Position numbers and translations under genes: made by a program
Shown here: in pieces, positions 4,400 to 40,786 of the stretch
How the letters are laid out: every line of letters starts with the position of its first letter
How positions within the stretch are numbered: the first letter of the stretch is position 1
The notes under the pieces: generated by a model
Seen by the model: the letters and a program-made list of their open reading frames with translations, nothing else
The model's database searches: none
Told to the model about the DNA's origin: nothing
Source of the DNA: a virus
IMG/VR virus record: IMGVR_UViG_3300050498_000076
Location: 1-41,557 of that record
Direction: 5' to 3' (one strand)
DNA length: 41,557 bases

Positions 4400-5179
4400 T
4401 CACCCTGCGTGCATCATCACGAGCGGGTCCCTGGGTCGGAGGGTCTTCAGCTCCTGCATGGCTCGGTTCAGTCGTTCTTCGATGCGGTAATCGTTGGCGG
4501 CTCCGTAGCTTCCCACTGCCCAGTAAAGGGCGTATTCTGCTGCCTTCCACTTGAGCCATGTGTCCCTGATCTGCTCGCTGATCTGGTCATCGTAATCGAC
4601 CAGGTCCGGGTGATCCTGCCTGGTGTAGATGTGTATCTTCCACCCGGTGGATGGCGGGTACCCGCTATCAAATATGATCTGACCGTCGCGCTCCCTGGAG
4701 TGGGCTGATTCGAATATTTGGGTTTCGTCGGTCGGATGCTCCAGCTCCACTCGGACCACCTTATTGAAGCCATCCGGGATGTCAAACTTCAGCGATGTGC
4801 CGTCGCCCAGGATGTCTGCCGGTGGTGTGCTCACCGCTTCCTTAACGATGAAGGTATCGGTCAGTGCCAGATTGATCGCCGACACCAGCTGCTCGTGTGG
4901 GTAGACGGCTCGTGCGACTGCGTACCCATTTCCGGCTGCGATCGCCGGGGTCACCGTGTCAATGGTCAGCTTGTTCCCGTAGTGCTTGGTGACGAAGAAT
5001 ACTTTTCCGGCGTGGCTGCCGGTGAGCATCCAGAGTGTGCCTCGATCGAAGTGTTGGTTGCCCATGATGATCTTCTTCGGGTCCGTCAGGGTGGTGGCGG
5101 TCCCTGCCTGCGCTGTGCCCCTGGTCACTTCCATCAAAAGTGAAGCCACCCGGAGTGTCATGGCTGATAGGGTTGTCAT
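4400..5179 (-). CDS. Virion structural protein (259 aa; head-tail adaptor / tail-tubular-A-like position)
   Basis: Track ORF with ATG at 5179, immediately upstream of the 883-aa tail gene. No motif recognised. Confidence 0.55.
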   Translation of the reverse strand: MTTLSAMTLRVASLLMEVTRGTAQAGTATTLTDPKKIIMGNQHFDRGTLWMLTGSHAGKVFFVTKHYGNKLTIDTVTPAIAAGNGYAVARAVYPHEQLVSAINLALTDTFIVKEAVSTPPADILGDGTSLKFDIPDGFNKVVRVELEHPTDETQIFESAHSRERDGQIIFDSGYPPSTGWKIHIYTRQDHPDLVDYDDQISEQIRDTWLKWKAAEYALYWAVGSYGAANDYRIEERLNRAMQELKTLRPRDPLVMMHAG

Positions 5180-5194
5180 GTCTACCTCGGTTGG

Positions 5195-5226
5195 TAAAAG
5201 ACCGGGATGCGCTCAGGCATCCCGGT
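5195..5226 (-). terminator. Rho-independent-type hairpin after the head genes
   Basis: Perfect 10-bp stem (accgggatgc / gcatcccggt, 5201..5226) with a 6-nt loop. It is followed on the minus strand by CTTTT. It sits between the 118-aa head gene and the adaptor-like gene. Confidence 0.5.
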
Positions 5227-5243
5227 TGTATTGTTGGCTTACT

Positions 5244-5600
5244 TTAGGTGGCCTTGTTGGCGCGGTTCGCTGGATCGATCCAGATTTTGACGCCTCCGAA
5301 GTCGGCTCCGGCTCCGGTCACGTCCAGCTTCACCTGGACGTACTCTAGCTTGGTGTAGAACGGGATCGAGTAAAAGCCGACCGCTGCGATCTGCTTCATG
5401 AACATGTTGTATTCCTGCGTGGTAGATGATGCTTCCTTGCAGAACTCCAGCTCGATGTCAAGGGTGGACCCACCCACAAATGCGGGCACGTAAACGTGAA
5501 GCCATAGCGGGTGATCCATCGGGCCGATCTTGAACGTGGTGAGGGTGGCATCGGCGGTCAGGGCTGCTGATCCGTCACGAAGAACTAAGTTGGTATCCAT
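5244..5600 (-). CDS. Hypothetical head-associated protein (118 aa)
   Basis: Track ORF directly downstream of the major capsid gene, with a GGAG RBS upstream. Confidence 0.6.
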   Translation of the reverse strand: MDTNLVLRDGSAALTADATLTTFKIGPMDHPLWLHVYVPAFVGGSTLDIELEFCKEASSTTQEYNMFMKQIAAVGFYSIPFYTKLEYVQVKLDVTGAGADFGGVKIWIDPANRANKAT

Positions 5601-7438: not shown

Positions 7439-7528
7439 TAGTTTCCTTCCCGATCGCTTGCATCACCATTGCTGGCGTGGCCAGCTCGTGGCATGCCGCA
7501 TCGCCGTCGCCGGTGGTAGGATCCGGAA

Positions 7529-8219: not shown

Positions 8220-8356
8220 TTCTTCATGTGGTTGTCCCGCTCGCCTCTCTCAAAGAACCGTTTGTTGCACCACCAGCAGAACCAGGCCGCCGGTCTGATG
8301 GTTCCACCGATTCCCCTGATGACCTTTCCCTTTCGCACGCTGATGATCCTAACCAT
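8174..8356 (-). CDS. C2HC zinc-finger-like small protein (60 aa)
   Basis: Track ORF with ATG at 8356 preceded by aaaGGAGTAGCcaATG. Contains the pattern CWWCNKRFFERGERDNHMKKC (C-x2-C-x12-H-x4-C). It overlaps its neighbours by 8 and 46 nt. Confidence 0.55.
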   Translation of the reverse strand: MVRIISVRKGKVIRGIGGTIRPAAWFCWWCNKRFFERGERDNHMKKCPRRPPDTNAGATT

Positions 8357-9062
8357 TGGCTACTCCTTTCAGTTGTTCGATTGCATCCATCACTGCGTAT
8401 CTCTCCAGGGCTGGCATCGCTTTCAGGTTCTTGAACCACCTGGTCTTCTTCTTCTTGATCCGCTCTCGCTCTCGGTAGCCTACTCCAAGGTACCTATAAT
8501 CGTGCAGCTCGAACGGCTCCGGGTAGTTCATCCACAGGCACTCCGTTGCCATGCCGGTCCGGGTCCTGGCTTGGAACTCGATGCGGCGCCATCCTTTCAA
8601 TGCCGCATTATACTGCTCCGATCGATAGCCTGAGATCGCATGCATCCAGTTGGGTGGTGTGTTTGTGATCAGTTCCAGCAGCCTGGCGTGCTGCTCCGGG
8701 GTATCGAACTCATGTCGATAAATGTTGCGCTGTGTGCTCCTGGTGCTCATCAGGTATGGTGGGTCGTGGTAAACCATCACCCGGTTCTCTTGCCAGTGGT
8801 CCCTCCAATTCTCCAGGAACGTTATCGCATCACCCATGATGAGGGCATGGTCCCACGTCCCCTCGCTCTCCAGCTGCGTGATCACCTCGACGTCGATGTC
8901 GATGCCGACGTTTGCGATCGGCGCTGGCTTCTTCCACCGGCTGACTGCTCCGCTGCCGAAGAAGGTTTCTATAAACACATCGTGTGGTGGGATTTGGTTG
9001 ATGATTAGTTGTGGGACCCCTGACCCGTTCTTCCCGCCTGGGTATTGGTGCGTGCCGTTCAT
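8349..9062 (-). CDS. Dam-like (D12-class) N6-adenine DNA methyltransferase (237 aa)
   Basis: N-terminal YPGGKNG...FIETFFGSGAV (AdoMet motif I) and a catalytic DPPY motif (VYHDPPYL). ATGA-coupled to the upstream gene. Confidence 0.85.
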   Translation of the reverse strand: MNGTHQYPGGKNGSGVPQLIINQIPPHDVFIETFFGSGAVSRWKKPAPIANVGIDIDVEVITQLESEGTWDHALIMGDAITFLENWRDHWQENRVMVYHDPPYLMSTRSTQRNIYRHEFDTPEQHARLLELITNTPPNWMHAISGYRSEQYNAALKGWRRIEFQARTRTGMATECLWMNYPEPFELHDYRYLGVGYRERERIKKKKTRWFKNLKAMPALERYAVMDAIEQLKGVANG

Positions 9063-9313
9063 GGGTTGCCCTTCACCCTCTCGCTCGATCGGGTCTGCAT
9101 GAACTTCATCCCGTCGACTTCCACGTCGTAGGTCACTGCGCTAAATCCGGCGCCATCCAGGAACGTGTTCGGGGTCCGCTTTGCGAGTGTCGTCTTCGGA
9201 TCGAACTGGTGGACTTCCCGCATGTGGTCCATCATCTCAGCGTGCGTGAACTGTGGGTGCCCTTCACATTCTAGGCACGTCCATGTGGTCGTGTGCTTCC
9301 ATTGATCTGCCAT
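9059..9313 (-). CDS. C2H2-like zinc-finger protein (84 aa from ATG 9313)
   Basis: The track ORF runs 9059..9379. I prefer ATG 9313 because an AAGGAG lies 9 nt upstream and the predicted promoter at 9336..9364 would exclude the longer starts. Motif: WTCLECEGHPQFTHAEMMDHMREVH. Confidence 0.62.
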   Translation of the reverse strand: MADQWKHTTTWTCLECEGHPQFTHAEMMDHMREVHQFDPKTTLAKRTPNTFLDGAGFSAVTYDVEVDGMKFMQTRSSERVKGNP

Positions 9314-9335: not shown

Positions 9336-9364
9336 AGTATCACCGGGAATGGTGGTGTTGTCAA
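9336..9364 (-). promoter_or_regulatory. Sigma70-type promoter TTGACA-17-GATACT for the Zn-finger/methylase operon
   Basis: The minus strand reads cTTGACAacaccaccattcccggtGATACT, with a perfect -35, a 17-nt spacer and a 4/6 match at -10. Confidence 0.5.
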
Positions 9365-9389
9365 GGTCGCCGATCCCAAAATTCAGGGA

Positions 9390-9418
9390 TTGAATTTTGA
9401 CGGCTCCGGGCGTATACT
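9390..9418 (+). promoter_or_regulatory. Plus-strand sigma70-type promoter TTGAAT-17-TATACT
   Basis: Read directly from the sequence. It is back-to-back with, and divergent from, the 9336..9364 promoter, with the two -35 boxes 25 bp apart. Confidence 0.5.
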
Positions 9419-9424
9419 ATTCTC

Positions 9425-9630
9425 ATGATCACCCGGAGTGCTGGACGCACCTCTCCCTTTAGCTTAGTCGATCCTCTTTCCTTGCCAGAGACCGTCGAGG
9501 GGATCACTCCGGGCTCGTCTAAAATTCTGAACTGACCCTTCCCGTCGCCTGGGCAAGTGGGGGAGGGGTCAATTCATTTATAGCCAAATGAGCACGCACC
9601 ACTGTCGGACCGAGTGGTGCGTGCTGTTTT
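9425..9630 (+). ncRNA. Candidate ~200-nt plus-strand small RNA (unknown class)
   Basis: It has its own promoter (9390..9418) and an intrinsic terminator (9591..9625 plus GUUUU), and contains no meaningful ORF. Internal helices: 9432-9440/9505-9513 (9 bp) and 9534-9543/9561-9570 (10 bp, one G-U). Confidence 0.35.
9591..9625. terminator. Bidirectional-type terminator hairpin
   Basis: Perfect 13-bp stem (agcacgcaccact / agtggtgcgtgct) with a 9-nt loop. The plus strand continues GTTTTAT. It sits 4 nt beyond the stop of the minus-strand 99-aa gene. Confidence 0.6.
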
Positions 9631-9928
9631 ATATCATCTGCCCTGGTCCTTCTAAAAGGAAGGCAGCCTCCTGGTTGTACTTCTTTCGGATGCGTGTGAT
9701 CTGCTGCTTCAGTGCGGCGTATAAGTCCAGGTCATCAAGCTCGACGATCCAGGCGACGTTCTGCCAGGGCATCCAGGTTGATCCGCCGCCGAAGAAGTGG
9801 ACCTTCATTGCGTTCCTTATCAGCGTGTCCATCTCCTGGGTGAAGCAGCTCCATTCGTATTGACTCAGCTTGTCGTCTGAGTTCCCGATCGAGATCGTTG
9901 CGTAGTGGTTCGGCTCCTGTGTTGCCAT
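9629..9928 (-). CDS. Hypothetical protein (99 aa), last gene of late operon 1
   Basis: Track ORF with RBS GGAGTAGCATG, 8 nt after the giant gene's stop. Confidence 0.7.
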   Translation of the reverse strand: MATQEPNHYATISIGNSDDKLSQYEWSCFTQEMDTLIRNAMKVHFFGGGSTWMPWQNVAWIVELDDLDLYAALKQQITRIRKKYNQEAAFLLEGPGQMI

Positions 9929-15900: not shown

Positions 15901-18900
15901 GACTCCTGCCCATTGTTCAATCACCTGCAGGTCCGCACGCACCTGCTCGTTCCCCGTTCGTGCGACCACGTCTGTCATCACTCGCCGATAAATGTGGGCG
16001 TTCTCGTGGATCACGGTGCTGACGTCTGCTCGCTCGAACGCCAGGATGGTTGCCTTGATCCCGTCTGGTCCAAACTGGACGGCTCCCTTTGGTGCTGCTC
16101 CCATGTCCTGGAATTGGAACTCATCGATCGCTCGCTGCATACTAGGGATCGCCTTCGATGGTTCGTTGCTCTCGAATACTTTCTTGGCGATCTGTGCGAT
16201 CTTGTTGATGCCGCTCGGTGTTGCCAGGGCTCGGTCACTCACCAGGCTTTCGCCGTTGGCATCCCGGATATCAAACGTGATCATGTCGGATGGGTGGTCC
16301 TTCAGGATTTGCCTGATTACCTTCAGCTGTGCGGCTGTAGGGACCGTGTTGACCAGGTCGATGTTGGTTTCGTCTGGCGATACCCACCAGTGCACCGATC
16401 CTGTTTCGTTGGCGAACTCGTCCCCTCGATAGGCGCCTTCTCCGGGTCCCATTACTTCGGCGATCACGCCATGTTCTTCGAGTGCGATCAGCTTGCCTTC
16501 CGGTGTCAGCCAGAGTGCCGTCAGCGGACTATTTGGATCGTACTCGGTTGCTCCGAAGGTTTCGATTGCTCGCTTCGTCCAGTCGGTGCGCTTCGTCGGC
16601 TTATAAGATGCCCTGGCTTCTTCCAGCCAGGTCTGGTAGTAAGCGTCCGGGTCCCGCTGGAAGAGTAGGTCGATGTTCTGCCTGGCGACGGCTTCTGCCA
16701 TCTTCGGGTCCAGCTTGTAAACTGCATCGATGATCTGGCGCCTGGCGCCGAGGGTGCTCTCTGCCTGCAGTGCGTGACCCACGTGCTTGGCTCCCTGGCG
16801 GACCAGGGCTTGTGCGTAGAAGCTGGTTTCGTCTGACGTCAGGGATCGGTTGATGGGTTGTATCTGGAAGAGTGGTTGCCCTTCCATCACTGCCTGCCGC
16901 ATCTCCGGGGTCACGTCCAGGCTGTGGACCGTTCCCGCCTCTTGTGTTAGTTGCACCGGCTCGACCGTCCCATTGAACCACTCGGCCTTCTTGGCGGCTT
17001 CTCTCCTGGATGTGTAGGTCTGGACTTCCCCTTCCCAATCCACATAGCTCCCGTCGCTCCGTCGCACTCGATAGGCTTCCACTGTTTTGGTCAGCTGCGT
17101 GCCGGAGACTTGGGCTCCCCATTTCTTCGCGTACTTATTGACCCAGGATGGCAGCATCTGATCATAGAAACCCTTCATGCCTTCGCCGCCGACCTTCAGG
17201 TTCTCTCCTTCCCATCGGTGGGTCGCTGCTTGGGAATGATCTGCTGCGACGATCTTCTCCGCCAGGTCTTTGCCGATCGTGTCGGCGAGTTGCTCAGGTG
17301 TAAGCCCTTCCCGGTTCAGCAGGGTTTGTCTGCCCTTGACCGCGTCGATGTTATATGTTCCGTCCGGGTTCATACTTGAATCGATGTGGTCGACTTGCTT
17401 CGCCAGGTTGTATCGATCTGCTTGCTGCTCGCCGGTGGTCCATGCCACCCGGTCGTATCCCTCATCGGCTGCCTTGCGTAGGATGCGCTTCATCACCATC
17501 TCGTGCCAGGTCTTTTGGAAGGGTGCTGGTTCTACTCCGCTGGTGCCCTTCTGCAGTTCATCTAGTCGTGCCTGGGCGACCTGCTCCGCTTGCTCGGATG
17601 CTTGCCTTGCTGCATTGTAGCGAGCCTCCTCATCGGCATCCAGTTCATATCTCCAGGCGAGTTGGCGTCCCTGCTCATCTCGATACTTCTTCTCGAACTC
17701 ACCCATCAAATCCATGTAGGAGTTGTTCTCCGGCAGTTCTTCCCATCCGTTGTTTGCCTGGTCCTGCAGGAAGTTCAGCTCTGCCTGCTCGTCCACGGAT
17801 AGCTCTCGCTTGTATCCCTTCTGCCGACCTGCCTGGTGCCAGTCGCTTTGGATTTCTTCCACCATGAGCACGCGTTTCCCATCGGCATCGACGCGATCCG
17901 TCAGCCTGGTGTGTGCCAGCACGTTGGGTTCATCCCAGTGGCTGGATTGATACTTGGCTGGTGGGTTTGCCCTGTAGTGTTCGAGTGCTGATGCGTGTGC
18001 ATCCATCGGCGTGGGACCGGCGCCGACTACCTGGTCCCCATCCCAGTATTGATAGACCTGCCTGCCGTTGAGCATGGTCTGCTTCATTGTCGTGGTCGCT
18101 GGCAGTGTGTCTGGTCGTTTGCCTGGCATCGTGAAGAGCACTTCCTGGTAGTTGGTGTGGTCGCCTGGCAGGGTGTAGCTGTGGTATTTGGTGGGCGAAT
18201 CACTCTCTCGCCTGCTCTGCGTTTGGTACCGATACTCCCGCTCCAGGGTCATCTCCATCTTGACAGCTGTCCGCTGTATGTCCCCTGGTGGCATCTCGTC
18301 GCTGGTGATGATGTCGCCTTCTGCCTTCGCATCGTGCCATCCGAACTGCAGGCTGCCTTCGTCGTCGACGAACGCATCCAGTTCATACCCTTTCCGACTC
18401 ATGCGTGCCGCCTGGGTTCTCCATCCATGCTGCTCGTTCAGGTTGTCGAATGCCGCATCTATAACCACGTCCGGGTCCGGCTCGTTTCCTCCGCCTTTGA
18501 CGATCTCAGTCATCTCCATGCGGTTGGCGTCGAGCACTTCCTGCACTTCGGCTTTGGTGATCTTGCCGGTGCGCTCTGCCAGGAAGTCATTGAGCCCGGT
18601 CCACTGCATCTCCTCGGCCTTGATGCCTGCCTTCTGCAGCATGCCGCGCAGCTGGTCGACGGTCATTGTCTCTTGTCTGATCGCCGTGATCGCTTGCTCA
18701 GATTTGGTGTACCACACAGGTGCCTCTCCTGTTTGTTTCAGCAGCCCTTCATCGCTGGCTGCTTTGCGGATGTCTTCATAATACCTGGCGTAGAAGTTTG
18801 CCTGGTCTTCGCCGGTGACGTTGGAGTACCAGGTTGCGACGGCATCGCTGATGGTCATGTATGCTTCTGCCTGCTCGACCGGCAGTCCCATCTCCTGGAT

Positions 18901-27933: not shown

Positions 27934-29352
27934 TCAGATTCCTTTCACGGCTCTGCCTGGGTGTGTGCTCCGTCTGTCCTGGCCGCCTGGTGCTGGCGGT
28001 GGTGTGTCGGTGCGCTTCTGGTTGGTGAACAAGTACCGGCACGTATCGTAGGCGTGGTCTTCGGCGGTGGTGTCGACGTCCTCGACGTTGATCGTGTCGT
28101 GCGCCAGGGTGGATAGCTGCTCGATCAAGTTCACGCATGTGCTAAAGACGACCATGCCTGGCTCGCCGTTGGGCAGATCCGCCAGCGCATCATCGATCTT
28201 CCGTTTGCCTGAGATGCGGTCGTTGTCTGCCCTGGTCAGGTAGACCTTGTTGTCTTTGTAGATGTCGTTTGCCGATGTGATCTTGGCTGCTGAGTTCTTC
28301 CGCTGCCACATCGCCGGGTCGCCGTAGTGGATGCTGATCACTTCGTTCGGCGGTGTCATCTCCTTGATCATCTCGGCTTGCTGTGTGAGTGTGAGCCCTG
28401 GTTGGTAGGCTTCCCTGTAAACGATCACCTGTCTGGTGTTCGGGTTGCGTGCTGCCCATAGTGTGCAGAATGGTGCCGTCGTTCCTTCGTCGGTTGCTCT
28501 CCACTTGAACCAGGTGTCCGGTATTTCGTGCGGCTCTACCACGTGGCGCTCGTAGTCCCATCCTGGGAATGCCATGCCTGCGAACGCATCCCAGTCTGCA
28601 TCTCGCCAGGCTTTGCCTCGTGGTCCCTTCAACCCTTCCAGCCAGCGGATGTACTCGGCGTGCAGGAATGGGTTGTCCTTGTAGGTCACGTTGAAGAAGC
28701 GGGTCCACTTCTCCCGGTGCTCTCGGGCCGGGATCACAAATGCCTTCTTGAACCAGAGCAGTCCTGGTCCGTCTGCGTTGGTGGTCAGGTACATCCGAGC
28801 ACGCCAGTCTGACCTGGTTGTGCGCAGGCTGCCTCGGATGTTCTCCTTCTTATCTTCTGGCAGCTGCGTGGCTTCTTCGACGGCGATGCCATCGTATTCC
28901 AAGCCCAGGTATTTATCGATGTCCCTGGCGTTGTTGTATCCGCCGATCACGATCCGGCTGCCGTTGGGGAACTCCACTCCTTCGGCGGTCGCTTTGTGTG
29001 GTGTGAATCGGAAGACCTTCCGGGTCAAGTCGTCCAGGCTTTCGGCTGCCGACTTCATGACCTTCCTTAAGAATAGGAACTTCAATCCATCGCGGCGCTG
29101 GCAGTCATCAAGTCCTACTTGTGCCAGGCTTGCAAATGATTTGCCTGGTCCCCGGCTCCCACCCATTGCGATCTCGTCGGGTCCGTCTTCCTGGTCGGCT
29201 TCCCTGGCTGCTGCGTGGAAGGGCATCATGCTCTGCAGCACGACGCAGCCTCCTATAATGAACCGCTCGATCTGATCTCTCGGCATCTCTGCTTCGGCTG
29301 CCGCCTGGACCATTCGAAGGATGCGCTCGTCAGCTTGGATGGTTGGCTGCAT
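27934..29352 (-). CDS. terL: Terminase large subunit (472 aa)
   Basis: Walker A (GGSRGPGKS) and Walker-B-like (GIAVEEAT) motifs. It follows a TerS-like gene and precedes portal. Confidence 0.85.
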   Translation of the reverse strand: MQPTIQADERILRMVQAAAEAEMPRDQIERFIIGGCVVLQSMMPFHAAAREADQEDGPDEIAMGGSRGPGKSFASLAQVGLDDCQRRDGLKFLFLRKVMKSAAESLDDLTRKVFRFTPHKATAEGVEFPNGSRIVIGGYNNARDIDKYLGLEYDGIAVEEATQLPEDKKENIRGSLRTTRSDWRARMYLTTNADGPGLLWFKKAFVIPAREHREKWTRFFNVTYKDNPFLHAEYIRWLEGLKGPRGKAWRDADWDAFAGMAFPGWDYERHVVEPHEIPDTWFKWRATDEGTTAPFCTLWAARNPNTRQVIVYREAYQPGLTLTQQAEMIKEMTPPNEVISIHYGDPAMWQRKNSAAKITSANDIYKDNKVYLTRADNDRISGKRKIDDALADLPNGEPGMVVFSTCVNLIEQLSTLAHDTINVEDVDTTAEDHAYDTCRYLFTNQKRTDTPPPAPGGQDRRSTHPGRAVKGI

Positions 29353-29881
29353 CTTTCGGCGCTCCGTATACCATGTCTAGGATTTGTTTCAACCCTTCAA
29401 CGTTCAGCGTGCCGTCGAAGGTGATCTTGGTTCCTGCCATGTCCAGGTTCATCAGCGTGCGGATGCTCTCTGATAGCTTGCGCACCTGGTCGACGGCTCC
29501 GAGCACCCCTCGGTACGCTGCCGGTGACGTCGAGAGTATCAATCGTTCGAGGCGCTGCCGCTCCAGCTCCCTGAGCAGGTTGGTTCCGTCTTCGATCTCT
29601 TTGCCTGTTCGCTCCAGTGCTCGCTTGACAGCCTTGCGTGCTCCTTCATGGGTGATGCCTAGTGCGTCGCCGATCGCTTCGAACGTGGCGCCGCCGATCC
29701 GTAGTTGGACGGCCTGGTTCTCTCTGACCCTGGCTGTCACTTCCTTGACCGACGTCGGTGAGTTGGCTCCCTGCAGCTGCGGGTTGGCGCTGATCAAGCT
29801 GGCGATCGTCGTCGGCACCACCGGGACTGGTGGTGTCTCCGGAGTTGGTGCCGTCTTCTGGTTCTTCTTGCGTGGGCTCAT
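29330..29881 (-). CDS. terS: Terminase small subunit-like DNA-binding protein (183 aa)
   Basis: Sigma70-region-4-like HTH (VQLRIGGATFEAIGDALGITHEGARKAVKRALER) followed by a coiled coil. It lies directly upstream of TerL and overlaps it. Confidence 0.6.
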   Translation of the reverse strand: MSPRKKNQKTAPTPETPPVPVVPTTIASLISANPQLQGANSPTSVKEVTARVRENQAVQLRIGGATFEAIGDALGITHEGARKAVKRALERTGKEIEDGTNLLRELERQRLERLILSTSPAAYRGVLGAVDQVRKLSESIRTLMNLDMAGTKITFDGTLNVEGLKQILDMVYGAPKDAANHPS

Positions 29882-40757: not shown

Positions 40758-40786
40758 ACTATATCAAATTCTTGACAAGTTGTCAA
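40758..40786 (-). promoter_or_regulatory. Strong sigma70-type early promoter TTGACA-17-TATAGT
   Basis: The minus strand reads TTGACAacttgtcaagaatttgaTATAGT. The -35 is at 40781..40786 and the -10 at 40758..40763. Confidence 0.6.

Follow-up and report, generated by a model that had tools for sequence, protein, structure and literature searches.

A candidate small RNA gene with complementary hairpin loops behind the giant gene of a phage from rhizosphere DNA, and similar RNAs in other phages

Genes and promoters at the locus

The window analyzed here, the whole 41,557-nucleotide stretch of IMG/VR record IMGVR_UViG_3300050498_000076, is the complete genome of a phage, bounded by direct terminal repeats, and was detected in rhizosphere DNA. 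All of the credible protein genes of this phage are carried on the minus strand. They include a large terminase and a portal of standard type; no integrase or repressor was recognized in the window. At the usual position of the small terminase (29330 to 29881), the window matched a PHROG labeled RNase E, a label that is annotation only.

The gap of interest lies between a 99-aa accessory gene (9629 to 9928, minus strand), which stands behind a 4,695-aa giant gene, and a divergent operon that opens with an 84-aa gene (9059 to 9313, minus strand; Shine-Dalgarno sequence just before the ATG at 9313) and continues with a D12-class adenine methylase (Dam methylase; 8349 to 9062, minus strand). The gap and the methylase operon are located upstream of the scaffold and capsid genes. 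A homologue search found no homologue of the 84-aa gene outside this phage, look-ups of methylase homologues returned short contigs only, and no RNA was reached through homologues of the two flanking small genes. In a strain contig (L005, 3 to 592), the end of the giant gene was called as two pieces, which could reflect an assembly error or a frameshift.

Both of the back-to-back promoters in the original prediction are present. The plus-strand sigma70-type promoter (TTGAAT-17-TATACT, 9390 to 9418) has a predicted start near 9425, and the minus-strand promoter (TTGACA-17-GATACT, 9364 to 9336) precedes the 84-aa/Dam methylase operon. We take the minus promoter to have the hexamers of lambda pL, with a similar spacer end and an operator resembling the lambda operator. 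Promoter-like matches at 9/12 are frequent (7 found compared to 3.5 expected in 10 kb). The claim that this is the only well-supported plus-strand transcription unit was borne out for intergenic DNA, where 9390 to 9625 is the sole promoter-plus-terminator unit genome-wide, but a second such unit lies inside the capsid gene. A strong early promoter (11/12) was noted at 40758 to 40786, with a −35 box that forms half of a short, perfect palindrome; its counterpart in L010, a related phage, is at 17136.

The predicted noncoding RNA (9425 to 9630, plus strand, about 205 nt) is a promoter-terminator unit. Folding gives a 5′ domain (9432 to 9513) in which a long-range helix, P1, encloses two hairpins, and the second of these (9470 to 9477 paired with 9498 to 9505) bears loop L2, with CUUGCC at 9481 to 9486. 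Hairpin H3 (9533 to 9571), with GGCAAG in loop L3 (9552 to 9557), is followed by an AGCCAA motif (9582 to 9587) and an intrinsic terminator with a 13-bp stem and a U-rich tail (9591 to 9632). Two helices described previously, the 9-bp long-range helix (9432 to 9440 with 9505 to 9513) and the terminator stem (9591 to 9603 with 9613 to 9625; 9-nt loop and GUUUUAU tail), are present and perfect. The helix described as 10 bp (9534 to 9543 with 9561 to 9570) is also present, but it contains one U·G pair and extends beyond 10 bp. The RNA converges on the end of the giant-gene operon, as had been proposed, with its terminator overlapping the stop codon of the 99-aa gene (9629 to 9631).

The plus strand had been described as having no ORF longer than 14 codons. 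The 14-codon ORF is at 9425 to 9469, but a longer frame, of 91 codons, begins with an ATG at 9588; it lies antisense to the 99-aa gene and continues beyond the terminator. No ORF is common to the members of the RNA family described below. The predicted start falls on the ATG at 9425, as would be expected of a leaderless mRNA for a 14-residue peptide beginning there. We regard such an mRNA as exceedingly improbable, because the start ATG is absent in all four relatives that carry the RNA and the ATG region is partly paired in the window.

Fold stability was above that of shuffles on both strands (z of −3.5 for the plus strand and −4.7 for the minus strand), so that the helices are more than chance yet do not show the strand. 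Because both strands fold well and promoter-like matches are common, the window alone cannot show a plus-strand gene. Strain comparison gave one change in the RNA, and the strain variant A9591C, in the terminator stem, costs 1.4 kcal/mol; DNA contigs of the phage had no variant within the RNA. This conservation is uninformative, because the adjacent 1.2 kb is equally invariant.

A similar RNA in four other phages

Searches with the capsid and giant proteins gave about 40 related phage records. One of these phages, L020, shares the methylase and the forward promoter with the window, and its opposite strand carries the same −35 box, a 17-nt spacer, a consensus −10 box, and the palindrome that also covers the −35 box of the window. 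A pattern of this RNA promoter matched one further phage, L062, with zero chance matches, and both L020 and L062 have the −35 box, 17-nt spacing, −10 box (TATAMT), and palindrome of the window's RNA promoter. The RNA bodies of L020 and L062 have in common a hairpin, H2, with an ACGCC loop (L2), hairpin H3 with a 3-nt pyrimidine bulge and a GGCGU loop (L3), and a terminator hairpin, H4, with AGCC in its loop. A pattern of H3 only led to L106, which was found to bear the H2/L2 loop, H4, and the palindrome too, none of which were in the query.

A covariance model built from L020, L062, and L106 found L065 at an E value of 3e-6, at the position syntenic with that in the window. The gene order of L065 is that of the window, and its RNA and methylase promoter stand directly back-to-back. 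In both L020 and L065, the RNA occupies the position that it has in the window, behind the giant gene and back-to-back with the Dam promoter. In all four relatives, the RNA is a promoter-to-terminator unit that runs against the virion genes. The RNAs of the relatives are 137 to 179 nt long, compared to 206 nt in the window, and the family core was present in 4 of the 42 other records searched.

Covariation in related contigs, which had been suggested as a check on the RNA, was found for the core of the four members. In the four-member alignment of H3 and H4, pairing holds in 91.5% of cells, and both bases have changed in 13 of the 21 pairs, which none of 500 shuffles reached; with four sequences and an alignment fitted to the structure, this result is supportive and not a probability. 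A model based on the window found no relative, and the window's 5′ domain (9432 to 9513) is a prediction from folding.

A promoter homologous to the minus promoter of the window precedes the same methylase in L010, L020, and L065. The divergent pair of the original prediction is present in the window but is not a fixed pair in the relatives: the two promoters are ∼170 bp apart in L020 and overlap in L065, and the partner is absent in L062 and L106. Between the RNA and methylase promoters of L020 (8094 to 8240), there is an extra forward promoter with a U-tailed hairpin, possibly a divergent small RNA.

Comparison with known RNA families and sequences

The earlier failure to place the RNA by eye in any known family was upheld by search. 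Rfam, applied at gathering and E-value thresholds to the window, L062, L106, and L020, gave chance matches only, and neither Rfam nor ARAGORN matched a tRNA, tmRNA, 6S, signal recognition particle (SRP), or riboswitch family in the window, which also has no tRNA frame. BLAST of cultured phages and plasmids gave nothing meaningful, and the exact terminator pattern was not found in viral contigs. No description of such an RNA was found in the part of the literature that was covered. To our knowledge, few noncoding RNAs have been described in phages other than enteric and Bacillus phages.

Several candidates were set aside. Resemblances to SRP helix 8, a solitary CRISPR repeat, CIRCE, and LexA and ArgR boxes were considered and dropped. 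The compact prophage RNAs STnc100 (RF02076) and PasD are reported with kissing hairpins, and the STnc100 model had no match in any of the five genomes with the RNA. Like the window RNA, C4 RNA (RF01695) and P4 CI RNA are multihairpin phage RNAs. P4 CI RNA forms a loop-loop pseudoknot. The C4 antisense RNA family (PMC2864571) gave no model match at E values up to 10, and the window RNA, unlike C4 RNA, is not part of an antirepressor operon leader. C4-like target sites were not found in phage leaders; the longest exact antisense match was 12 nt and lay inside a gene.

The RNA family with the two-hairpin core is uncatalogued, with no Rfam counterpart. It offers a testable fold, including a two-loop kiss, a natural compensatory variant, and a candidate operator.

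Strand of the RNA gene

Comparison among phages bears on the strand. In each of the five phages (the window, L020, L062, L065, and L106), the −10 box is oriented toward the unit, and a U-rich tail on the RNA strand is clear in L020, L062, and L106, is also found in L010, and is weak in L065. The opposite strand of the relatives lacks a U tail of this kind, and the folding of L065 is much more favorable on the RNA strand.

These observations were weighed against the possibility that there is no plus-strand RNA at all. In that case, the late mRNA of the minus strand would end in these hairpins, as its 3′ trailer and terminator, and the plus-strand hexamers would belong to an operator. Such a trailer would agree with the folding of the minus strand, which is at least as good as that of the plus strand, with the weak U-containing tail that the terminal hairpin has on the minus strand also, and with the retention of only part of the unit in L010. 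However, the inward direction of the −10 boxes, the U tails of the relatives on the RNA strand, and the fold of L065 make a pure minus-strand trailer unlikely, and the kissing loops described below are found on the plus strand only. We consider this explanation quite improbable. The promoter, the strand, the polarity of the terminator, and a folded body are all seen again in related phages, so that comparison supports the plus-strand RNA gene of the original prediction, and the gap from 9425 to 9630 very probably holds a real RNA gene, its transcription being read from these sequence features.

Complementary loops and the relation of the window RNA to the family

The best accessible loop-loop duplex in the window RNA joins 9481 to 9486 (L2) with 9552 to 9557 (L3), with 6 bp and −7.7 kcal/mol, an energy reached by 5 of 120 random windows (chance P of about 0.03 to 0.04). 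The reverse strand has no such duplex. The pair of loops that forms the best accessible duplex, and their order, are the same in the window, L020, L062, and L106, the assignment of L2 and L3 in the window being a manual alignment. Compared to the family, the GCC/GGC core of the duplex is kept in the window and two flanking pairs are swapped to U-A, a compensatory change. To judge from this loop complementarity, the kiss would also form in vivo.

The window RNA and the family have in common the position, promoter, strand, palindrome, size class, and AGCCAA motif. In L020, L062, and L106, the motif is within the terminator hairpin loop; in the window it is just before the terminator, outside its loop. 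The pyrimidine run of H3 is kept in the window but is paired. The four-member model missed the window in a filtered search, and the unfiltered search with the H3-H4 model matched 9523 to 9634 with 12.2 bits and an E value of 0.17, second in its own genome. Because this score is weak, membership rests on position and architecture. On that basis we lean toward regarding the window RNA as a divergent positional homologue, related to the family by descent.

Operator-like sites at the two promoters

The original prediction did not list three further features of the locus, the loop-loop complement, a palindrome at the plus promoter, and an operator-like site at the minus promoter. The palindrome, an inverted repeat of 9 bp with a 5-nt spacer (9377 to 9399), lies over the plus −35 box and is a probable regulator site, judged from its sequence and placement. 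It is found once per genome in the window (G000), G001, G002, and G003, where it always sits at the RNA promoter, compared to an expectation of 0.002 to 0.006 per genome. The palindrome over the −35 box is absent in L065; three further phage records have the palindrome and no recognizable RNA. Because G001 and G002 have little in common with the window apart from distant virion proteins, the protein that binds the palindrome may be encoded by the host.

The minus promoter has a different site in its spacer, a 6+6+6 quasi-palindrome (9339 to 9356) that has 12 copies in the window (at 7500, 7899, 9339, 19201, 24079, 24108, 26338, 26377, 29817, 35349, 38338, and 38408) compared to a mean of 0.13 in shuffles. 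It accounts for the CACCACCA repeats. Several copies sit in the leaders of late operons, the giant gene, and the initiator gene, and the site recurs in the L020 and L065 genomes, including before their late promoters. The quasi-palindrome is probably the site of a phage regulator, a prediction from its sequence and distribution. The presence of the palindrome at one promoter and a different site at the other indicates that the two promoters belong to separate modules.

Possible functions of the RNA

The reading that we favor, tentatively and at rather less than an even chance, is a stand-alone, operator-controlled RNA that acts in trans by its shape, as a protein ligand or decoy. Host polymerase of the sigma70 type would transcribe the RNA from 9425 to the intrinsic terminator near 9630, against the virion genes, and a regulator binding the palindrome over the −35 box would control the gene. 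The transcript would fold into the 5′ three-way junction, the second hairpin, and the terminator, with L2 and L3 pairing into a kissing pseudoknot, and might then serve through its shape as a ligand or decoy for a host or phage protein. Recognition by a protein is the simplest reading because the conserved features are features of shape (the kiss, the bulge, and the motif in the last loop); neither a terminator nor a fully complementary antisense RNA needs the conserved loops and bulge. The RNA may be active in a silent phage or at an early stage of infection. L106, in which the RNA gene follows a serine recombinase and lies on the repressor strand, suggests expression in the silent state. Since no integrase was recognized in the window, this timing is borrowed from L106. 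Should the RNA prove to be a decoy for a protein, an RNA would join the tools that phages use against their hosts, here in an uncultured lineage.

The strongest competing explanation is a cis-acting antisense barrier, in which the RNA and its promoter would oppose read-through from the terminase-portal-giant operon, compete with the methylase promoter, and keep the Dam operon off at the wrong time. Each of the five phages has the RNA converging on the end of a late operon, three of them (the window, L020, and L065) place it back-to-back with the same Dam promoter, and no strong minus-strand terminator was found after the giant operon in the window. However, in none of these three does the predicted RNA overlap the transcript that starts at the methylase promoter, no methylase is adjacent in L106, and the L062 RNA sits downstream of an unrelated cytosine methylase. 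Furthermore, the role of a barrier does not need conserved loops or a kiss. We therefore find this explanation doubtful, if still to be taken seriously; an RNA that is an antisense barrier only would be a modest addition to phage gene control.

By analogy, the window RNA would work most like an independent phage small RNA such as OOP, sar, PreS, or VpdS. Lambda OOP and P22 sar are likewise small phage RNAs with their own promoters, read against the main transcript, and lambda OOP converges on an mRNA, as does the window RNA. OOP and sar overlap a fixed target (cII and ant, respectively) (PMC12197685), whereas the window RNA overlaps a stop codon only, the convergent gene varies by phage, and the loops are conserved. 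The convergent gene is a different one in every relative, and the 99-aa gene is unlinked to the RNA in its homologues. With such variation and an overlap of few bases or none (in the window, the stop codon at 9629 to 9631), a cis-antisense RNA of the OOP or type I antitoxin kind is disfavored.

PreS and VpdS are trans-acting phage small RNAs that act on host mRNAs and are short and Hfq bound with known targets (PMC12197685). Both are independent phage RNA genes that end in an intrinsic terminator, as does the window RNA, which is longer and mostly paired, with no conserved seed found. Their precedent raises the possibility of a base-pairing small RNA aimed at host mRNAs through C/U-rich single strands, and accessible, anti-Shine-Dalgarno-like C/U-rich stretches are present at 9447 to 9461 and 9474 to 9483. 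These stretches vary in position and sequence across the members, and target prediction on phage start regions gave weak pairings (−5 to −10 kcal/mol) with unrelated genes, so that we think this mode of action distinctly unlikely. The suggestion that the RNA regulates phage mRNAs by base pairing found no support, as no target was shared among the phages. Pairing with a late-leader box was rejected because no covariation links that box to the RNA loops, and pairing with the ribosome site of an 82-aa gene was rejected because it was not among the top predictions and gave no shared target.

The anatomy of the RNA also recalls phi29 prohead RNA (pRNA; PMC5066667), which is a separate RNA gene product with complementary loops, a three-way junction, and a 3-nt bulge, its structure kept while its sequence drifts. 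A packaging RNA of this type, with covarying complementary loops linking copies into a ring on the portal, is very improbable here. The window phage is of the terminase type, with a standard large terminase and portal and direct terminal repeats in place of a phi29-type motor and terminal-protein genome; the two loops are on separate domains; there was no Rfam pRNA match; and the presence of the RNA is patchy, most relatives with the same head genes having no detectable RNA.

A more specific proposal, which we regard as unlikely and put forward as speculation, is a mobile, previously undescribed family of pseudoknotted phage RNAs, each with its own operator, that neutralize a host protein such as an RNA-sensing defense factor, with the window RNA as a rewired variant with coevolved kissing loops.

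Neighboring elements in related phages

Two phages with part of the unit were left out of the family. The closest whole relative of the window phage, L010 (4826 to 5071), keeps the forward promoter, the reverse −35 box at the same distance, and the antisense terminator, without a clear −10 box or kiss, and an integrase gene follows its methylase. In L113 (19345 to 19500, minus strand), the palindrome and a consensus −10 box lie before a different hairpin-rich unit of ∼120 nt, another small RNA, downstream of an integrase and an HNH gene.

The capsid type of L065 differs from that of the window (L065, 13279 to 14256), although the end of its giant gene and its tail gene are among the closest, which points to module exchange. 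Directly upstream of the family RNA in L106, after the recombinase, is a second ORF-poor promoter-to-terminator unit (5068 to 5255), which is possibly another small RNA.
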